Below the pieces are notes generated by a model. The model searched no databases and had not been told where the DNA came from. It was given only the letters and a program-made list of their open reading frames with translations. This document shows, one piece after another, positions 3,648-36,354 of a DNA stretch of 64,000 nt (position 1 is its first letter; every line of letters begins with the position of its first letter). The DNA is from Acidobacteriota bacterium. Its GTDB lineage: Bacteria > Acidobacteriota > UBA6911 > RPQK01 > JAJDTT01. Location of the stretch: positions 2,304,001-2,368,000 of the forward strand of contig OZ242374.1 in assembly GCA_965209055.1 (NCBI GenBank). Reading direction: 5' to 3'. Made by a program: the position numbers and the translations under genes.

Positions 3648-3801
3648 CCGGTCCGGATTCTACCGCCATGGAGATTGCCGAAACAACTCAACCGAGTCGG
3701 CCGCCTCCATCGCCGGCGGGAAGGGACCTCCGGTCGAAAGCCGTAGCCGCTTTCAGTCCCGGCTGTTAGAGTTGCCCCTTCTCCCACGTGAACCGAATCC
3801 A

Positions 3802-5301
3802 ATGATCGTCTCCTTCGTCCTCTATCTGGTGATCCTGTTGGGGCTTGGCCTCTATGCGTCCCGCTTCATCAAGAGCCTGAAGGGGTTCCTGCTGGCCGAC
3901 CGCTCCATGGGGCCGTTCGTCACCGCACTGTCTGCCGAAGCCTCCGCCATGAGCGGTTGGCTGCTGATCGCAATCCCCGCTCGCGCGTTCACCTACGGAC
4001 TCGCCGCCATCTGGGTGGGATTGGCCTGTGTCATGGGGGACGCGGTGAGTTGGCTGTCGGTCTCCAAGCGGTTGCGGCGGCAGACGGAGCGGCTGCGGGC
4101 CCTGACCTTGCCCGAGTACTTTGAAAAGAGGTTCGCCAAGGAAGGAGGGTACGCCGTTCAACTGGTGGCCACCCTGGGAATCATGGTCTTCATGCTCATC
4201 TACCTCTGGGCCCAATTCGTGGCCGCGGGCAAGGCCATGTCGGCCATTCTGGACTACGTCGATTACCCGGAAGCCACGCTGCTGGCTGCCATCATCATCA
4301 TCGTGTACACGCTGCTGGGAGGATTCCGGGCCGTTGCCTGGACCGACTTCCTTCAAGGATTCATGATGCTGCTGGCCCTCACCATGCTGCCCCTGATCTG
4401 CCTGGCGAAAGTGGGCGGCTGGAATGCGCTCATGGGGCACCTTTCCCAGGTCTCCTCCGAGATGCCCGGAACCGCCAGTTCCAACCTGGATCACTGGTTC
4501 GCGGGGCTGACGGGGTTGGTGCTGTTCACCTTTCTCTTCGAGGACGCCGGAGTGGGGGTCGGCTATGTGGGTCAGCCTCACATCAGCGCCCGCTACATGG
4601 CGGTGCGGAAGGTCGCCCACCTGAAGACGGCTTTCATGGTGTCCGTCTGCTGGAACCTGCTGGCCGTTTCGGGAGCCGTGCTTCTGGGGCTGACCGCCCA
4701 CTATTGGTATCGATTCGCCGCCGCAGAGACGGTGCAGTCCCGCCTGGATTCCGCCCTGATCTTCAACGTGGAGCAGGTTCTGCCCATGATGGCTCGCCAG
4801 GTTCTGGATCCCTGGGTCGCCGGAATCCTGGTCTCGGCCACGCTGGCCGCCATCATGTCCTCGGCCGACAGCTTCCTGCTTTCCGCCGCCAGCTCCATGA
4901 CCCGGGACGTCTACCAGCGCATCTTCCGGCAACAGGCATCGGAACGGGAACTGCTCAAGATATCGAGAGTGGTGACCATCGGACTGGGAACGGGGGCTCT
5001 GACACTGGCTCTCTCCACCGATCCCTGGGATCCGGAGGCCACCGTCTATCAGCTCGTCCTGTACGCCTGGGGTGGACTCTCCGCTTGCTTCACCGCGCCC
5101 CTGGTCATGGCCCTCTTCTATCGGAAAATGACGCGAGCCGGGTGCCTGGCGGGCATTCTGATCGGCGCCGGGACCAGCTTGGTCTGGCGCAACATCGAGG
5201 CCCTTTCCTCCGTCGCCTACGAATTGATCCCCTCGGTGATCGTCTCAGGCTGCACCATTTGGGTCGTCTCACGACTGACCTGGAACGGTGACCCCAAGTA
5301 G
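3802..5301 (+). CDS. putP: Sodium/proline (SSS family) symporter
   Basis: ALSAEASAMSGW, YTLLGGFRAVAWTD, GQPHI..RYM, LAAIMSSADS; about 13 TM segments; start placed at ATG 3802. Confidence 0.85.
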   Translation: MIVSFVLYLVILLGLGLYASRFIKSLKGFLLADRSMGPFVTALSAEASAMSGWLLIAIPARAFTYGLAAIWVGLACVMGDAVSWLSVSKRLRRQTERLRALTLPEYFEKRFAKEGGYAVQLVATLGIMVFMLIYLWAQFVAAGKAMSAILDYVDYPEATLLAAIIIIVYTLLGGFRAVAWTDFLQGFMMLLALTMLPLICLAKVGGWNALMGHLSQVSSEMPGTASSNLDHWFAGLTGLVLFTFLFEDAGVGVGYVGQPHISARYMAVRKVAHLKTAFMVSVCWNLLAVSGAVLLGLTAHYWYRFAAAETVQSRLDSALIFNVEQVLPMMARQVLDPWVAGILVSATLAAIMSSADSFLLSAASSMTRDVYQRIFRQQASERELLKISRVVTIGLGTGALTLALSTDPWDPEATVYQLVLYAWGGLSACFTAPLVMALFYRKMTRAGCLAGILIGAGTSLVWRNIEALSSVAYELIPSVIVSGCTIWVVSRLTWNGDPK

Positions 5302-29477: not shown

Positions 29478-30172
29478 TGGACGGGTCTCTGGTGATCTTC
29501 TCCCGGTTTCCCCGATTGGGCCGGGTGAAGACCAGACTGGAGCCGGCGCTGGGTAAGCGGGGTTGCCTGGAACTTCACCGGGCGCTGCTTCTGGACACCG
29601 TGGAACGAACGCGATTCCTGAGCCGGCGCCACTACCTGTATCTGAGCGGCTCCACCGCCCGGGAACGGTCCCGGTTCGCCGCAGCGTGGCGCCTGCCCGC
29701 GGATCTGATCATCCGCCGACAGACGGGAGCCGACCTGGGAGAGAGATTGTGTAAGGCCTGCCGGCAGATCGCCGCGGAATCGAAGGAAAAGCCGGTGGTC
29801 TTTCTGGGGGCCGACTCCCCTACGGTGCCGCGGAAGTACATTCGCCGAGCCCTGGATCGACTTGCGAGGCGGCCCGTCGTCGTGGGACCGGCCGAGGACG
29901 GGGGGTACTATCTCATCGGTCTTTCCCGCCCCAGGCCGGAACTCTTCTCGAATCTGGATTGGGGGACCGGCAAGGTCCTGGAGCAGACACTTCAGAGGTT
30001 GCGGCCGGATCAGTATACGTTGCTGCCCTGCTGGTTCGACGTGGACGACGGCGGCGACCTGGCCCGGCTCCACAGGGAGGTCGAGGCGGCGGAGCCGGAC
30101 GTCTTCCGGCACACGCGCCGTTGCCTGCGGGCGCTGGTCCACGACCCGGTTTCCCAATCGGTTTTCCGGTGA
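29477..30172 (+). CDS. DUF2064/TIGR04282-family glycosyltransferase
   Basis: GRVKTRL, Q.GADLGER, LGADSP, VVGPAEDGGYYLIG, WGT..V, DVDD..DL; ATG overlaps the HNH stop. Confidence 0.88.
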   Translation: MDGSLVIFSRFPRLGRVKTRLEPALGKRGCLELHRALLLDTVERTRFLSRRHYLYLSGSTARERSRFAAAWRLPADLIIRRQTGADLGERLCKACRQIAAESKEKPVVFLGADSPTVPRKYIRRALDRLARRPVVVGPAEDGGYYLIGLSRPRPELFSNLDWGTGKVLEQTLQRLRPDQYTLLPCWFDVDDGGDLARLHREVEAAEPDVFRHTRRCLRALVHDPVSQSVFR

Positions 30173-30303
30173 TCCTTTTAAGGGAGATTCGCGTCTCAAG
30201 AAAGGTGCGCTCGATCTGGCTCGGTTGACCGGAAGCGGCCACCTTGACTAACATTGCATCAGGTGTGCGCCCGGAAAAAGCGTGAAGGGGTGTTGAGGCG
30301 GCG

Positions 30304-31143
30304 GTGAAGGATTTCCTGGAACGGCTGTTGGGTTTGAAGGTCCCCGAGGCCCAATTGGAGGGACCGCGAGACCCCTATAACATCTACGAATGGGATCTCG
30401 ACGACCGGAGGCCGTTGGTGGTCGCCGCCATACTGGCGATCCTCTTTCACGCCGTTCTCCTTTTGATGATCTTCCCCTCGTTCGGCAAGACGGTCCTGGT
30501 CCCGACCCAGCAGGTGCTGGTGCTCAAGAATCTGGCGAAACCCGCGGCCCTCGCCGGGGGCGGCGACCTGCCCAAGGCGACACCGCCCAAGCCCGAGCCG
30601 GTGAAACCGAAGCCCAAGCCGATTCTGGTTCCCATTCCCGATCCGACTCCCAGAGAACCCGAACCCATCCGCAAGGAGGAACTGGAAAACGTCCCCCAGG
30701 TCATCAAGCAGATCGTAGCGGAATTGAACCTGGACGACATTGAGGCTCCGCCAGGGCGTCCCGGCCGGGGAGGGCAGGGTGAGAGCCAGGGCGAGGGCAC
30801 GGGAACCGGCCCCCTTGCCGGTTCGGGACCCGCGGCTGGAGACGGTAGCGGCATCTATCGATACGGGAGCGGAGTCACCAACCCGGTTCCCATCGTTCAA
30901 ACGACTCCCAGCTACACCGACGCCGCCATCAAAGCCAAGGTTCAGGGTGTGGTCTGGCTTCAGGCCATCATCCGGAAGGATGGCAACGTCGACAGCTTCA
31001 AGGTCATTCGAGGATTGGGCCACGGTTTGGAGGAACAGGCCATCCAGGAGATCGCCACCAACTGGCGTTTTCGGCCCGGAATGCTCAACGGGAGCCCGGT
31101 CGACGTCCTGGCCACCATCGAAGTCCAGTTCAACCTGAGGTAG
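30304..31143 (+). CDS. tonB: TonB energy transducer
   Basis: TM helix with His (ILFHAVLL), Pro/Lys-rich linker, PSYT..A..A.VQGVV.L...I..DG.V, WRFRPG..NG.PV. Confidence 0.88.
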   Translation: MKDFLERLLGLKVPEAQLEGPRDPYNIYEWDLDDRRPLVVAAILAILFHAVLLLMIFPSFGKTVLVPTQQVLVLKNLAKPAALAGGGDLPKATPPKPEPVKPKPKPILVPIPDPTPREPEPIRKEELENVPQVIKQIVAELNLDDIEAPPGRPGRGGQGESQGEGTGTGPLAGSGPAAGDGSGIYRYGSGVTNPVPIVQTTPSYTDAAIKAKVQGVVWLQAIIRKDGNVDSFKVIRGLGHGLEEQAIQEIATNWRFRPGMLNGSPVDVLATIEVQFNLR

Positions 31144-31233
31144 ACGACGGCTCCGGCGTCGAACCTTTCGAGAATGAGGGCAACGACAAGGGTTGCCCCG
31201 ACACCATCGCATCCCGCTATAATTCCGGCTCTT

Positions 31234-34005
31234 GTGGCTGAAGTACTCGACCTGAAAGGAACCATCAACCTTCCCAGGACCCGTTTCCGGATGAAGGCGA
31301 ATCTGCCCGTTCTGGAGCCGCGGATTCTCAAGTCGTGGGAAGAGTCGGGGATCTACGCGAGAATCCGCTCGGCGCGAAAAGGAAAGCCTCTCTTCATCCT
31401 TCACGACGGCCCTCCCTACGCCAATGGGCATCTCCACGTGGGACACGCCCTGAACAAGATCCTCAAGGACTTCATTGTCCGTTCCAAGACCATGGAGGGT
31501 TACGATTGCCCCTACGTGCCGGGGTGGGACTGCCACGGGCTGCCCATCGAGATTCAGGTCATGAACCGAAAGCGGGCCGACCTGGAACCGCTGGAGGTGC
31601 GCCGGCGATGCCGGCGGCACGCCGACAAGTTCGTGCGCATCCAGGGGAATGAGTTTCGCCGCCTGGGGGTCACGGGGGACTGGACCGCGCCCTATCTGAC
31701 CATGAGCCATTCCTATGAAGCCGAGACGGCCCGGCTGTTGGGTGATTTCGTCCGCCGGGGAAGCGTCTACAAGGGTCTCAAGCCGGTTCATTGGTGCATT
31801 CACTGCGAGACGGCATTGGCCGAAGCCGAAGTGGAGTATTCGGAACATGTCAGCCCATCGGTCTACGTCCGGTTTCCCGTGACGGGAGGACTCCATGGAC
31901 TGGACGCCGGAGCCCGCCCCGTCTCGGTGCTGATCTGGACCACGACGCCCTGGACGCTGCCCGCCAACATGGGGCTCTGCTTTCATCCCGACTTCGAATA
32001 CGCGTTGGTGGAGGCCCGGGACGAGGTCTTCATCCTGGCTGCCGATCTGGTCCCCCGCGTTTCCAAGGAGTGCGATCTGGGCGACTACCGGATTCTGGGA
32101 CGCCTGCGGGGCGCTGCCCTCGGCGGTCTCGAGTGCCGGCACCCATGGCTACCGCGCCGGTCCGCGGTCGTATTCGGGACTCACGTCACGCTGGACCAGG
32201 GCACCGGCGTGGTCCATACGGCACCCGGACACGGAGAAGAGGACTACCGCCTGGGGGTCGACAACGGTCTCGAAGTGTATTGTCCGGTGGACGATTCGGG
32301 CCGGTTCCTGCCGGAGGTGGATCACTTCGGTGGCATGCCCGTGTTCGAGGCCAACCCTTCCATCAACGCCCTTATGGCCCGGGAAGGCCATCTGGTCCGG
32401 GAAGAGCCGTTCCGGCACAGCTATCCTCATTGCTGGCGCTGTCACAACCCGGTCATTTTTCGCGCCACGGCGCAGTGGTTCATCAGCATGGACCGGGAAG
32501 ACCTTCGCGGCCGGGCCCTGCGCGAGATCGCCAGGGTGAAGTGGCTTCCGTCCTGGGGCCGGGAGCGGATCCACAACATGATCGCCACCCGGCCGGACTG
32601 GTGTATCAGCCGGCAGAGAACCTGGGGTGTTCCGATCATCGCCTTCTACTGCAGGGCCTGCGCCAAGATCCTTTTGGAGAGCGGCATCATCGAGCATGTA
32701 TCGCGCATCTTCGAGCGGGAGGGAGCCGACGCCTGGTACCGGAGGCCCGCGTCGGAGCTTCTCCCGAAGAACACCCGTTGCGCCTGTGGAAGCGAAGAAT
32801 TCGAGAAAGAAAAAGACATATTGGATGTCTGGTTCGACTCGGGGGTCAGCCATCACGTGCTGCGGGAAACGCCGGGACTCGATTGGCCCGCGGATCTCTA
32901 CCTGGAGGGTGGAGATCAGTTCCGGGGCTGGTTTCACAGTTCCTTGCTGGTCGGGGTCGGCGTCAGCGACGGAGCTCCCTACCGGTCGGTTCTGTGCCAT
33001 GGATGGACGCTGGATGCCGAGGGGAAAGCCATGTCCAAGTCCCGGGGCAACGTCATTTCTCCGCAGGACATCACCAAGCGGGACGGCGCCGAGATCTTGC
33101 GCCTCTGGGTTGCGTCCATCGACTACACCGAAGACGTCCGTCTGGGGGAAGAGATTCTTTCCCGACTCCGGGACGCCTACCGCAAGCTGCGAAATACGAG
33201 CCGCTTCCTCTTGGGCAACCTTCACGACTTCTCTCCGGAAATGGCAGTGCCGGACGAGGAACTGCTGGAGTTGGATCGTTGGGCTCTGGCCCATACCGCC
33301 GCCACGGCACGGCGGGTGGAGGAGGCCTACCGGAATTTCGAGTTTCACACCGTCTATCACTCCCTGTACCACTTCTGTGTGGTGGGGCTTTCCAGCTTTT
33401 ATCTCGACGTGCTGAAGGATCGCCTCTACGTCTCGGCGGCCGATTCCACGGAACGAAGGTCGGCCCAGACGGCCCTGTTCCGGATCGCGGACGCATTGGT
33501 CCGGCTGCTGGCTCCGATCCTGCCCTTTACCACCACCCAGATCTGGGAAGAGCTCCACGGCCGGAATCCTCCCGCCGAGTCGGTCCACATGGCCGAGTTC
33601 TCCCGGGAGCTGGACCGTCATGAGGACCCCGAGCTCCTGGAGCGGTGGGAGCCGCTCCTGCGGATCCGCCACCAGGTCAGCAAGTCACTGGAGGAATGCC
33701 GCCAGCAGAAGCTCATCGGGAATTCCTTGGAGGCGTCGGTCAGGATCGAGGCCGGCGCGGAGACTTGCCGGTACCTCAGCCGGTATGCGGACGATCTGGC
33801 CACCGTCTTCATCGTCTCCGAGGTCGAGATCGGACTGAGGGAGGACTTGGCGGGGGATGAGACGCGGATCGAGGTGACCCGAACCCAGGCGGAGAAATGC
33901 GCGCGGTGCTGGAACCATCGGCGCTCGGTGGGGACCGATGCCGATCTGCCGCACGTCTGCTCCCGTTGCCGCACGGTGCTGGAACGGATCGGCGCCCTCG
34001 ATTGA
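31234..34005 (+). CDS. ileS: Isoleucine--tRNA ligase
   Basis: DGPPYANG.LHVGH, GWDCHGLPIE, WTTTPWT, AMSKS, C-terminal CARCW..CSRC; GTG start 31234. Confidence 0.97.
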   Translation: MAEVLDLKGTINLPRTRFRMKANLPVLEPRILKSWEESGIYARIRSARKGKPLFILHDGPPYANGHLHVGHALNKILKDFIVRSKTMEGYDCPYVPGWDCHGLPIEIQVMNRKRADLEPLEVRRRCRRHADKFVRIQGNEFRRLGVTGDWTAPYLTMSHSYEAETARLLGDFVRRGSVYKGLKPVHWCIHCETALAEAEVEYSEHVSPSVYVRFPVTGGLHGLDAGARPVSVLIWTTTPWTLPANMGLCFHPDFEYALVEARDEVFILAADLVPRVSKECDLGDYRILGRLRGAALGGLECRHPWLPRRSAVVFGTHVTLDQGTGVVHTAPGHGEEDYRLGVDNGLEVYCPVDDSGRFLPEVDHFGGMPVFEANPSINALMAREGHLVREEPFRHSYPHCWRCHNPVIFRATAQWFISMDREDLRGRALREIARVKWLPSWGRERIHNMIATRPDWCISRQRTWGVPIIAFYCRACAKILLESGIIEHVSRIFEREGADAWYRRPASELLPKNTRCACGSEEFEKEKDILDVWFDSGVSHHVLRETPGLDWPADLYLEGGDQFRGWFHSSLLVGVGVSDGAPYRSVLCHGWTLDAEGKAMSKSRGNVISPQDITKRDGAEILRLWVASIDYTEDVRLGEEILSRLRDAYRKLRNTSRFLLGNLHDFSPEMAVPDEELLELDRWALAHTAATARRVEEAYRNFEFHTVYHSLYHFCVVGLSSFYLDVLKDRLYVSAADSTERRSAQTALFRIADALVRLLAPILPFTTTQIWEELHGRNPPAESVHMAEFSRELDRHEDPELLERWEPLLRIRHQVSKSLEECRQQKLIGNSLEASVRIEAGAETCRYLSRYADDLATVFIVSEVEIGLREDLAGDETRIEVTRTQAEKCARCWNHRRSVGTDADLPHVCSRCRTVLERIGALD

Positions 34006-34063
34006 AGCCGGGAGCGATGGGAGAGGATATCCTTCGGAGGCCTTTGGCGCGGTGGAGAAGACG

Positions 34064-35353
34064 ATGAAACTCGTGGCGCTGGGAGTGGCGGCGACGGTGC
34101 TGGCGCTGGATCTCCTCACCAAGTGGTGGGTCAAGAGCACGCCTTGGCTGCACTACCACAAGGTGGTCGATGGATTCTTCGCCATCCACTTCGTCCGCAA
34201 TGAGGGCATTGCCTTCGGCCTGTTCCATTCCAATCCGTCGGCGTGGAAACCGGTGATCCTTTCCGTCCTGGCCGTCGCGGCGGCGGTCATGGTGTTGTAT
34301 TACATCTGGACCAGCCCTCCCGAGGAAAGAGGCGTCCAACTGCTCATGGGGCTCCTGTTGGGAGGGATCCTGGGGAATTTCTGCGACCGGCTGTGGCGTG
34401 GGTATGTCGTCGATTTTCTGGATTTTCATTGGCAGGACCGTTTCGCCTGGCCGACCTTCAATCTGGCCGATGCCGCAATCACCTGCGGAGTCGCGGTGAT
34501 TCTCTACCAGGGCTTTTTCGGAGCGGGCAGCGGAGACCGGGCATCGAGCCGGCCCAGCCGGAAAAACTCCGGCTCTTTGGGCGCGTTTCTCCTGGCGGGA
34601 CTGCTCTCGGCGCCCCTGTTGGGAGAATCGGCCTCTCCCGGCGCGCTGGAAATCGTGGACCGGGTCCAGGCCCGGTACGATCGGGTCGAAAGCTTCTCCG
34701 CCGATTTTCGGCAGGTCTTCCAATCGCAGGGGGTCTTTTTCGAAAGCGACTGGGGCGAGGGGGTCCTGCTGATGAAGCGCCCTGGAAAAATGTACTGGGA
34801 GTACCGGCGCCCCACCAGGAAGCTGTTCGTGGCCGACGGCAAGCAGACCTTCTTCTACGTCCCCGGCGAGAACCAGGTGACGATCGCCGACCTGGACCCG
34901 GAGACTGCGGATACGCCGCTGCTTTTCCTGCTGGGACCCAAACGGATCCGGGACGATTTCATGGTGGAGTTCGAAACCGGGGAAGGACCGTTGGACGAAT
35001 CCAACCTGCTCCTGCGGTTGACGCCCGTTCAGGCCCGGCCTGAATTCAGCTATCTGCTCTTGGAGCTGTCCTCCCGGACCTGGCTCATCCAGAGATTGTC
35101 CGTAATCGAGCCCATCGGTAATCGCAACGACTACATCTTCAGCCGTTTCCGGGAGAACGTCACGATTCGGGACAAACAGTTCCGCCTGGAGTTGCCGGAT
35201 GGAGTGGAGATCATCCGAATCGGATCCGGCGCCGGCCGGAGGCCGGACGGGGAGCCCGGCCGGTTTCTTCATCGCAGCGGGATCGAGACCGCGCTGGAGT
35301 TCACAGTCCGTGACGACTTTTGCCGCGGTCGGTTAAGGAGAGTGCCCAGTTGA
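34064..35353 (+). CDS. lspA: Fusion of lipoprotein signal peptidase II (LspA) and outer-membrane lipoprotein carrier LolA
   Basis: LspA: DLLTK, NEGIAFG, GNFCDR...VVDF, WPTFNLAD. Then a hydrophobic linker and LolA: FSADFRQ, KRPGKMYWEY, LFVADGK..FYVP..NQV, TPLLFLLG. No stop between them. Confidence 0.88.
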   Translation: MKLVALGVAATVLALDLLTKWWVKSTPWLHYHKVVDGFFAIHFVRNEGIAFGLFHSNPSAWKPVILSVLAVAAAVMVLYYIWTSPPEERGVQLLMGLLLGGILGNFCDRLWRGYVVDFLDFHWQDRFAWPTFNLADAAITCGVAVILYQGFFGAGSGDRASSRPSRKNSGSLGAFLLAGLLSAPLLGESASPGALEIVDRVQARYDRVESFSADFRQVFQSQGVFFESDWGEGVLLMKRPGKMYWEYRRPTRKLFVADGKQTFFYVPGENQVTIADLDPETADTPLLFLLGPKRIRDDFMVEFETGEGPLDESNLLLRLTPVQARPEFSYLLLELSSRTWLIQRLSVIEPIGNRNDYIFSRFRENVTIRDKQFRLELPDGVEIIRIGSGAGRRPDGEPGRFLHRSGIETALEFTVRDDFCRGRLRRVPS

Positions 35354-36354
35354 GCGAAATTCGGGCGAACATAACGGCCGTGGGGATGTACGTTCCGGAG
35401 AAGCGCGTCACCAACCACGACTTGAGCCGGGTACTGGAAACTTCCGACAAGTGGATTCGAGAGCGAACCGGGATCTCGGAGCGCCGAATCGTCGGCAAGG
35501 ACGAGGCGAACAGCGATCTCTCGGTTCGAGCCATCCGAGACGCTCTGGATGGCACGCCACATCGTCCTGAAGACATCGATCTCATCATCGTCACCACCGT
35601 CACGCCGGACATGATGTTTCCTTCGACCGCTTGCCGGATCCAGGAGAAGATCGGGGCCACCAACGCGTGGGGGTTCGATCTTTCCGGGGCCTGCTCCGGA
35701 TTCCTTTTCGGCCTCTCGACGGCTGCGCAGTTCATTCGGACGGGGACCCACAAGAAGGTCCTTGTGGTGGGAACCGATGTGATGAGCTCCATCATCGACT
35801 TCGAGGACCGGGCCACCTGCGTGCTCTTCGGAGACGGCGCCGGGGCGGTCCTCCTTGAGCCCACCGAAGAGGAGGATGTCGGCATCCTGGACGCGACCCT
35901 GGGATGCGACGGGTCAGGAGGCAAGTTCCTGTACATGCCGGCCGGAGGGAGCCAACGCCCGGCAAGCCATGAAACCGTGGACAAGCGGATGCACTATGTC
36001 CATCAGGACGGGAGGAACGTCTTCAAGTTCGCGGTTCGGGTCATGTGCGACACTTCCGTCGGATTGCTCCGGCGAAACGGCATTCCCACCGATCAGCTTT
36101 CCCTGTTCGTCCCCCATCAGGCCAACATGCGAATCATCAAGTCGTCCATGTCGCGCCTGAAACTGGGCGAGGAACAGGTTGCCGTCAACATCGACCGCTA
36201 CGCCAACACGACGGCGGCGACCATCCCCACCTGTCTGGCGGAAGCTCACCGGCAGGGACGACTGAAGAAACGGGACAAAGTCCTCATGGTCTCCTTCGGA
36301 GCGGGATTCACCTGGGGAGGCATTCTGCTCGGCTGGGGAATGGATCCGCCGTAA
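35350..36354 (+). CDS. fabH: 3-oxoacyl-ACP synthase III
   Basis: ACSGF, LFGDGAGA, VPHQAN, YANT..ATIP, FGAGFTWG; SD AAGGAG before TTG 35350. Confidence 0.95.
   Translation: MSEIRANITAVGMYVPEKRVTNHDLSRVLETSDKWIRERTGISERRIVGKDEANSDLSVRAIRDALDGTPHRPEDIDLIIVTTVTPDMMFPSTACRIQEKIGATNAWGFDLSGACSGFLFGLSTAAQFIRTGTHKKVLVVGTDVMSSIIDFEDRATCVLFGDGAGAVLLEPTEEEDVGILDATLGCDGSGGKFLYMPAGGSQRPASHETVDKRMHYVHQDGRNVFKFAVRVMCDTSVGLLRRNGIPTDQLSLFVPHQANMRIIKSSMSRLKLGEEQVAVNIDRYANTTAATIPTCLAEAHRQGRLKKRDKVLMVSFGAGFTWGGILLGWGMDPP

Follow-up and report, generated by a model that had tools for sequence, protein, structure and literature searches.

A maintained in-frame fusion of signal peptidase II and the lipoprotein carrier LolA in an order of uncultured Acidobacteriota

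Signal peptidase II (LspA; MEROPS family A8), which cuts diacylglyceryl-prolipoproteins in front of the lipobox cysteine, is known as a stand-alone enzyme, represented by the solved structures 5dir, 6ryo and 9emz. As established for 5dir, its four helices leave both termini on the cytoplasmic side. LolA, the periplasmic carrier that takes over lipoproteins from LolCDE or LolDF and brings them to the outer membrane, is likewise known as a stand-alone protein (for example 2w7q, 1iwl, 6f3z and 7z6w), free and soluble and made with a cleavable signal peptide at its N terminus. Here, we describe a 64,000-nucleotide stretch of an Acidobacteriota genome (GenBank assembly GCA_965209055.1, contig OZ242374.1, positions 2,304,001 to 2,368,000; hereafter the window, whose numbering is used for coordinates unless a locus is named), in which a single open reading frame (ORF) on the forward strand, lspA-lolA at 34064..35353, encodes both proteins. 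Its product shares with stand-alone LspA a full-length profile match, the same two aspartates, four helices and the position after ileS. Unlike stand-alone LspA, however, it runs past the cytoplasmic tail into a hydrophobic segment and a periplasmic-type domain of 190 residues. With stand-alone LolA it shares an equivalog score and the fold (Foldseek TMt 0.77-0.84), and, as in unfused LolA orthologues, a signal-peptide-like segment lies directly before the mature domain with the same spacing. In contrast to stand-alone LolA, this segment is internal, following a whole membrane enzyme, and the genus of the host genome adds a disordered tail of 44 residues.

Membrane proteins from which an outer domain is cut off have precedents. 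The Bradyrhizobium cytochrome b/c1 precursor FbcH reportedly has its outer domain released by signal peptidase I. In Staphylococcus aureus, the polytopic protein LtaS is reported to be cut by SpsB, with release of its outer domain (PMC12260438).

A complete LspA and a complete LolA in one frame

The ORF comprises 429 codons and a TGA stop, without an internal stop, and a GGAG motif at 34054-34057 lies 6 nucleotides upstream of its ATG at 34064. A preliminary description of the window, made from its letters alone, had read the stop-free frame after ileS as a complete LspA with the aspartates of VVDF and FNLAD, a basic-plus-hydrophobic segment and a full LolA-type domain, and the translation, the profile searches and the fold matches agree with this. 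The LspA domain spans residues 9 to 152 (34088..34519, forward strand), with support from Pfam, NCBIfam, AlphaFold2 and Foldseek. Over these residues the Pfam profile Peptidase_A8 (PF01252) is matched at positions 2 to 142 of its 142 (E = 4.2e-38; 131.2 bits against a cut-off of 25), and the NCBIfam lspA equivalog TIGR00077 scores 113.3 bits against a cut-off of 73.95. This part contains D117 in VVDF (nucleotides 34412-34414) and D136 in FNLAD (nucleotides 34469-34471), the catalytic pair of LspA. Both residues are invariant in 27/27 aligned fused proteins, and both align to identical aspartates of the solved LspA chains 9emz and 5dir, which a solved-structure sequence search matched to residues 6 to 160 with E values of about 2e-18.

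The LolA domain covers residues 196 to 385 (34649..35218, forward strand), supported by the same four sources. Pfam LolA (PF03548) matches residues 207 to 375 (E = 9.7e-26; 90.9 bits, cut-off 23.6), the lolA equivalog TIGR00547 matches residues 196 to 384 (123.3 bits, cut-off 112), and the solved LolA chain 2w7q was matched to residues 198 to 385 (E = 2.2e-16). Between the two domains lies a junction of 43 residues, 153 to 195 (34520..34648, forward strand), delimited from the sequence and by comparison with fused and unfused N-termini, in which a short, presumably cytoplasmic tail with the basic segment R159-K167 (nucleotides 34538-34564; four basic residues) is followed by a hydrophobic core of 15 residues, L172-L186 (nucleotides 34577-34621), and then by a c-region containing small residues.

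In an AlphaFold2 model based on the 27-protein alignment, with a mean pLDDT of 77.1 and a pTM of 0.51, residues 1-152 and 190-388 form two domains predicted with confidence. In the LspA part, helices are predicted at residues 2-25, 62-83, 89-112 and 134-152 with pLDDT mostly above 80, together with the periplasmic beta-elements of the LspA fold, and Foldseek matched this part to 5dir_B (TMt 0.81) and 6ryo_A (TMt 0.80). In the LolA part, strands are predicted between residues 211 and 386 with pLDDT mostly of 85-94, and the top Foldseek matches were all solved LolA structures, at the TMt values given above and with E values down to 7e-16, in agreement with the open beta-barrel and helical lid of the LolA fold. 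The linker of residues 155-190 and the tail of residues 389-429 were modeled with low confidence, the linker at pLDDT 44-56 and with a low-confidence helix at 172-181, and neither the junction nor LolA was confidently packed against LspA in the model. Because of this low junction pLDDT and a pTM of only 0.51, no fixed packing is predicted. By profile, aspartate pair and predicted fold, then, the LspA part is a complete signal peptidase II with predicted enzyme activity, and the LolA part is a complete domain above the curated cut-offs with a predicted carrier role.

The protein ends in a low-complexity tail, residues 386-429 (35219..35350, forward strand), which the alignment marks as genus-specific, since relatives outside the genus mostly end directly after the LolA fold in the 27-protein alignment. 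From about residue 386 the tail is predicted to be disordered, with pLDDT below 40 (26-37). In sequencing run X7, a contig carries an in-frame variant of tail length, in which 11 nucleotides take the place of 47 at 35286-35334.

Authenticity, distribution and origin of the fusion

The fusion is genuine, not a sequencing error, and it is evolutionarily maintained in three families (f1, f6 and f12) of one order of uncultured Acidobacteriota. The host genome is a single contig of 6,077,182 bases (98.41% complete, 7.4% contamination), and within these 6.08 Mb the fused ORF is both the sole Peptidase_A8 match and the sole LolA match above cut-off, so that the cell depends on it for both functions. 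Run X1, possibly the source of the assembly, holds a 20,105-nucleotide contig identical to the stretch. A 33,602-nucleotide contig from run X5, which belongs to another study and is labelled sponge metagenome, spans 33900-35500 with 17 substitutions and no gaps; among the 11 listed substitutions inside the ORF, none creates a stop and 7 are synonymous. No insertions or deletions were reported in the four runs compared (X1, X5, X7 and X20). A stop codon near 34520-34570 in reads or relatives, which the preliminary description had named as the sign of a false fusion, was sought and not found.

The protein was searched against 41 genomes of its own genus, family and order, and stop-to-stop frames were re-read in the 38 with both domains. 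Those left out were G016 (unpublished; separate frames of 187 and 247 amino acids) and G030 and G039, which gave only a weak LolA-like match and are 74% and 90% complete. Both domains share one open frame in 21 of the 38 genomes, namely 9/9 of the own genus (84-100% identity), 6/6 of the sister genus (52%), 3/3 of family f6 and 3/3 of family f12, so that the in-frame fusion first read in a single genome is kept in its relatives. The other 17 have lspA followed directly by lolA in separate frames, and in these unfused relatives lolA begins inside the 3' end of lspA or directly at it. In 15 of the 17 the two genes occupy different reading frames, with stop-to-stop frames that abut or overlap, and in two (G021 and G032; loci L018 and L026) the genes lie in the same frame, divided only by one or more stop codons. 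Adjacent pairs such as those of G020, G024 and G029, and of G100 in another order, resemble the fusion in gene order, in 43-62% identity per domain and in a lolA start at or after the lspA 3' end, but there lspA has its own stop codon and lolA its own start.

The two sister-family genomes in which only in-frame stops separate the genes show how one base change can create such a fusion, and the ORF could in principle have come about in the same manner, through a mistake in sequencing or assembly or because this one genome had recently lost a stop. Such an artefact or accident is vanishingly improbable here, given that the fusion is common to every genome of the own and sister genera and to two further families, that 94 database clusters contain both domains, and that an independent contig, obtained in another study, runs through the entire stretch without a gap or a stop, with no insertion or deletion in any of the four runs.

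We also considered run X20, a metatranscriptome, as evidence for transcription or for an internal start. It was set aside: its four short contigs show 90-95% likeness and represent a relative, and one of them leaves at 34547 into unlike sequence. As a separate observation, among the runs containing at least 39% of the sampled words of 33900-35500, a number from different studies carry the label sponge metagenome; judging by these labels, the genus may be sponge-associated.

In a collection of 5.8 billion proteins, 94 of the 98 matched clusters, with identities as low as 40%, combined the two Pfam domains in a single protein, under source names such as 'signal peptidase II [Acidobacteriota bacterium]' or, at the Joint Genome Institute, 'lipoprotein signal peptidase/chaperone LolA'. 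The architecture is already annotated automatically in databases, and since pipelines name most of the fused proteins only 'signal peptidase II', the genome's only lolA is hidden. In a 50%-identity library, matches across both domains were limited to 3 of the best 150 representatives (P0054 fully, P0081 and P0095 partly) and the rest match one half, which points to one narrow family and not to a recurrent invention. Of 401 genomes sampled evenly across the phylum, 17 gave one contiguous match at E <= 1e-70, distributed as 7/7 in f1 plus the genome studied here, 6/6 in f6, 2/2 in f12 and 1/6 in f17. The f17 genome, G100 (other order; locus L142), was rejected as fused, because its lspA ends at 3793 and its lolA starts at 3803 in the same frame with two TGA codons inside; with this split pair removed, 16 of the 401 are fused. 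A scan of species genomes returned 80 loci, of which three were fused, five were adjacent pairs and the remaining 72 had one gene without the other within 1.5 kb, the last group including loci titled Terriglobia, Vicinamibacteria and Blastocatellia.

The gene orders indicate that the fusion arose from an adjacent, translationally coupled lspA-lolA pair, because 17 other genomes have lspA directly before a separate lolA. The same-frame pairs in G021, G032 and G100 are a point change away from the fused state, whichever way the conversion runs, and loss of the stop would suffice to fuse them. In a quick maximum-likelihood tree of 38 concatenated LspA and LolA domain sequences, with the junction left out, the best topology needs four changes between fused and split states, the well-supported branches force only one, and the deep nodes lack resolution, so that a single origin and several origins are both compatible with the tree.

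The fusion is an uncharacterised variant built from two well-known families. In line with the preliminary description, which knew of no characterisation of it, no paper describing an LspA-LolA fusion was found in full-text literature searches, which do not cover subscription journals. In two papers on Lol evolution (PMC9963962 and PMC11885536), the main text contains no word beginning with Acidobacter and none of the terms fusion, fused or LspA, and their supplements might list architectures.

The junction and the placement of LolA

Next, the junction was compared across 96 database proteins and the query, of which 95 were usable (P0081 looks frameshifted). In 95/95 an uncharged hydrophobic stretch follows LspA and shortly precedes the N-terminal helix of LolA, mostly with 2-4 basic residues before it. 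In fused proteins with a full LspA (n = 90), the hydrophobic core has a median length of 15 residues (interquartile range 13-16, minimum 8) and the best 19-residue hydropathy a median of 1.42, against 15 and 1.38 for the signal peptides of unfused proteins (n = 17). Several fused lineages have cores of only 8-12 residues, a length insufficient for stable anchoring in the membrane. In the fused proteins the core gives way to small residues (for example TLNA-Q in the sister genus, LRA-A in f12, and PVA-W), in patterns resembling those of the unfused ones (AWA-Q, ARA-Q, GKA-E). Between families the junction is unalignable and its length varies from 32 to 87 residues; the f12 member G040 has a long linker resembling a read-through spacer. 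In the protein of the window, the LspA part has the same kind of ending as the stand-alone enzyme, a short tail beyond helix 4 (the end of the Pseudomonas aeruginosa chain aligns with residue 160). The core is followed from G187 by G-E-S-A-S-P-G, and the first LolA helix begins at about residue 192, leaving only about 8 residues between core and LolA fold. By inspection, G187 and S189 (nucleotides 34622-34636) each precede a candidate cleavage site for signal peptidase I. These properties suggest a signal peptide still doing its job, not a helix recruited into the LspA fold, and we infer that the junction is LolA's retained Sec signal peptide, which would now form a fifth membrane segment in N-in/C-out orientation.

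Two other approaches to the junction were discarded. A lipobox, through which LspA would process its own fusion partner, was rejected, as the own genus has no cysteine in the junction and the few cysteines of other lineages stand in no lipobox-like context. A rule-based count of -3/-1 sites proved too permissive to discriminate.

Taking these features together, we propose with moderate confidence that the fusion is a membrane polyprotein from which signal peptidase I, by cleavage, would release an ordinary soluble LolA. The N-terminal part would be an ordinary four-helix signal peptidase II with its C terminus in the cytoplasm, and, because LspA ends there, the next hydrophobic segment would insert N-in/C-out and place LolA in the periplasm. 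As the fifth segment, the former Sec signal peptide of LolA would drive this export, and signal peptidase I would cut just after it, most likely around G187/E188 or S189/A190. Released LolA would then work normally with a LolD/LolC-E-like transporter, while LspA would be left with a short extra C-terminal helix. A polyprotein of this kind would fix 1:1 co-expression and co-translational membrane targeting, with no new trafficking mechanism. The topology, export and cleavage predicted here from sequence resemble the logic reported for LtaS and SpsB, and for FbcH, in that a membrane N-terminal part is followed by an N-in/C-out hydrophobic segment with small residues and by an exported domain that is cut off. 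The cases differ in that cleavage was demonstrated there and is predicted here, and in that the fusion described here combines an enzyme with a carrier from the same pathway.

A genome survey of lgt, lnt, lolCDE and lolB, which the preliminary description had suggested, located all of these in some form except lolB. The genome has two copies of lgt, an lnt gene (292 bits) and two signal peptidase I genes. The cluster at G000:C1:4135810-4137703 (L051:1492-3385) contains, after lysS, one gene for a lolC/E-like permease and one for a lolD-like ATPase, whose best NCBIfam scores fall below the cut-offs (lolCE, 317.7 bits against 362; LolD, 256.3 bits against 307.75). The presence of one permease and not two resembles a LolDF-type arrangement. 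LolB was not found in the genome search. A weak LolA-like paralogue of 249 amino acids with its own signal peptide lies on the minus strand near an ABC ATPase gene (G000:C1:1043665-1044414; L141:1665-2414) and misses the Pfam cut-offs for LolA_like (29.1 bits against 30) and for LolA (22.2 against 23.6). A counterpart of it is present in nearly all of the 41 related genomes, fused or not. The earlier suggestion that the fusion might form a non-canonical maturation and trafficking unit is not borne out, as the two lgt copies, lnt, the lolC/E-like and lolD-like genes and both signal peptidase I genes are all in the genome, and in sister families the two genes stand next to each other without being fused.

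Several observations weigh against a cleaved signal peptide. The -3/-1 pattern of the own genus (L-L-G before E, or G-E-S before A) is not the textbook A-x-A, and the loop before the core is net acidic in the sister genus (0-1 basic against 3-6 acidic residues), which is unusual for the n-region of a signal peptide. Moreover, hydropathy separates signal peptides poorly from membrane helices, LspA helix 3 itself scoring 1.43. The absence of a textbook site would also suit a permanently tethered LolA, in which the junction is an uncleaved fifth transmembrane helix and LolA acts at the outer face of the inner membrane, for example as first acceptor, while another factor crosses the periplasm. Retention of the fusion down to 40% identity and in every sampled f1, f6 and f12 genome would fit a selected physical coupling of this kind, and the weak paralogue, having its own signal peptide, could in principle be the soluble carrier. 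That paralogue, however, does not co-vary with the fusion, being found in nearly all of the related genomes. With only about 8 residues between core and fold, a LolA left tethered would have the outer membrane out of its reach, yet the fused protein holds the only bona fide LolA of the genome; left uncut, it would be pinned at the inner membrane, and for this among other reasons we favor the polyprotein. The cores of 8-12 residues in several lineages, a junction that is not conserved between families and not confidently packed on LspA, and the presence of canonical lnt and lolD/lolC-E-like genes also argue against tethering, which we regard as unlikely. Where the preliminary description had offered tethering and release by signal peptidase I side by side, release is the half that fits better with the length and hydropathy of the junction, the short spacing and the lack of predicted packing. 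A more specific form of tethering, in which LolA and LspA would together make up a processing-and-capture station at the place of signal-peptide removal, with transit left to the weak paralogue or to a bridge, seems to us quite doubtful. If true, it would give lipoprotein trafficking a layout unlike the shuttle model.

Another way to obtain a separate LolA would be an internal start within the junction, so that one ORF yields two products, pre-LolA and, possibly, the full-length fusion. The codon of L172 is TTG in 9/9 genomes of the own genus, although the neighboring codons vary synonymously, and in unfused relatives the lolA start does lie in or at the 3' end of lspA. Nevertheless, 8/9 of these genomes have no Shine-Dalgarno-like motif in the 18 nucleotides upstream of the TTG, and a product starting at L172 would miss the basic n-region, whose arginines and lysines lie upstream. 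In the sister genus, a TTG is found in the core in 2/6 genomes and an ATG or GTG before the core in 0/6. Since other fused lineages have no conserved in-frame start, internal initiation would not be a general solution for the fused family, and we hold it to be very unlikely.

When genes for two steps of a pathway become fused, this is evidence from nature that the steps are functionally coupled. In the present case, the last-but-one enzyme of lipoprotein maturation and the periplasmic carrier are translationally coupled across the order and, in three families, covalently joined. Should signal peptidase I cut the junction, the fusion would be a clean natural example of a bacterial polyprotein of a membrane enzyme and a periplasmic protein, and a test case for the recognition of internal signal peptides. 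If it is not cut, the LolA shuttle model would fail in these bacteria, which also show no recognisable LolB. To our knowledge, the lipoprotein trafficking pathway has not been studied in the phylum Acidobacteriota, and the fusion offers a simple, testable entry to outer-membrane lipoprotein trafficking there.

Neighboring genes and unusual architectures

The fused ORF lies directly 3' of ileS, encoding isoleucyl-tRNA synthetase (31174..34005, forward strand; Pfam tRNA-synt_1, E = 2.6e-126, Anticodon_1 and zf-FPG_IleRS), in the classical ileS-lspA arrangement. Upstream of ileS, the region 29480-31143 of the window contains a DUF2064/CofC-like nucleotidyltransferase gene and a gene for a protein with a TonB C-terminal domain and a long Pro/Gly-rich linker. 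Downstream lies fabH, encoding 3-oxoacyl-ACP synthase III (35335..36354, forward strand, start predicted; Pfam ACP_syn_III and ACP_syn_III_C). The TGA of the fusion overlaps a TTG as TTGA at 35350-35353, with AAGGAG at 35335-35340, 9 nucleotides upstream. The TTG at 35350 is likely the start of fabH, and the longer TTG start at 35320 given by the ORF finder is probably not used. Given the TTGA overlap and the AAGGAG motif, fabH may be translationally coupled to lspA-lolA.

Other unusual architectures were seen among the database matches. In P0137 (797 amino acids) and P0233 (359 amino acids), LolA stands at the C terminus of a longer protein, and in P0114 (358 amino acids) it is LspA that occupies this position. 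LspA is also joined to Peptidase_S41 in P0099 (456 amino acids) and to a fragment of IleRS in P0097 (695 amino acids).

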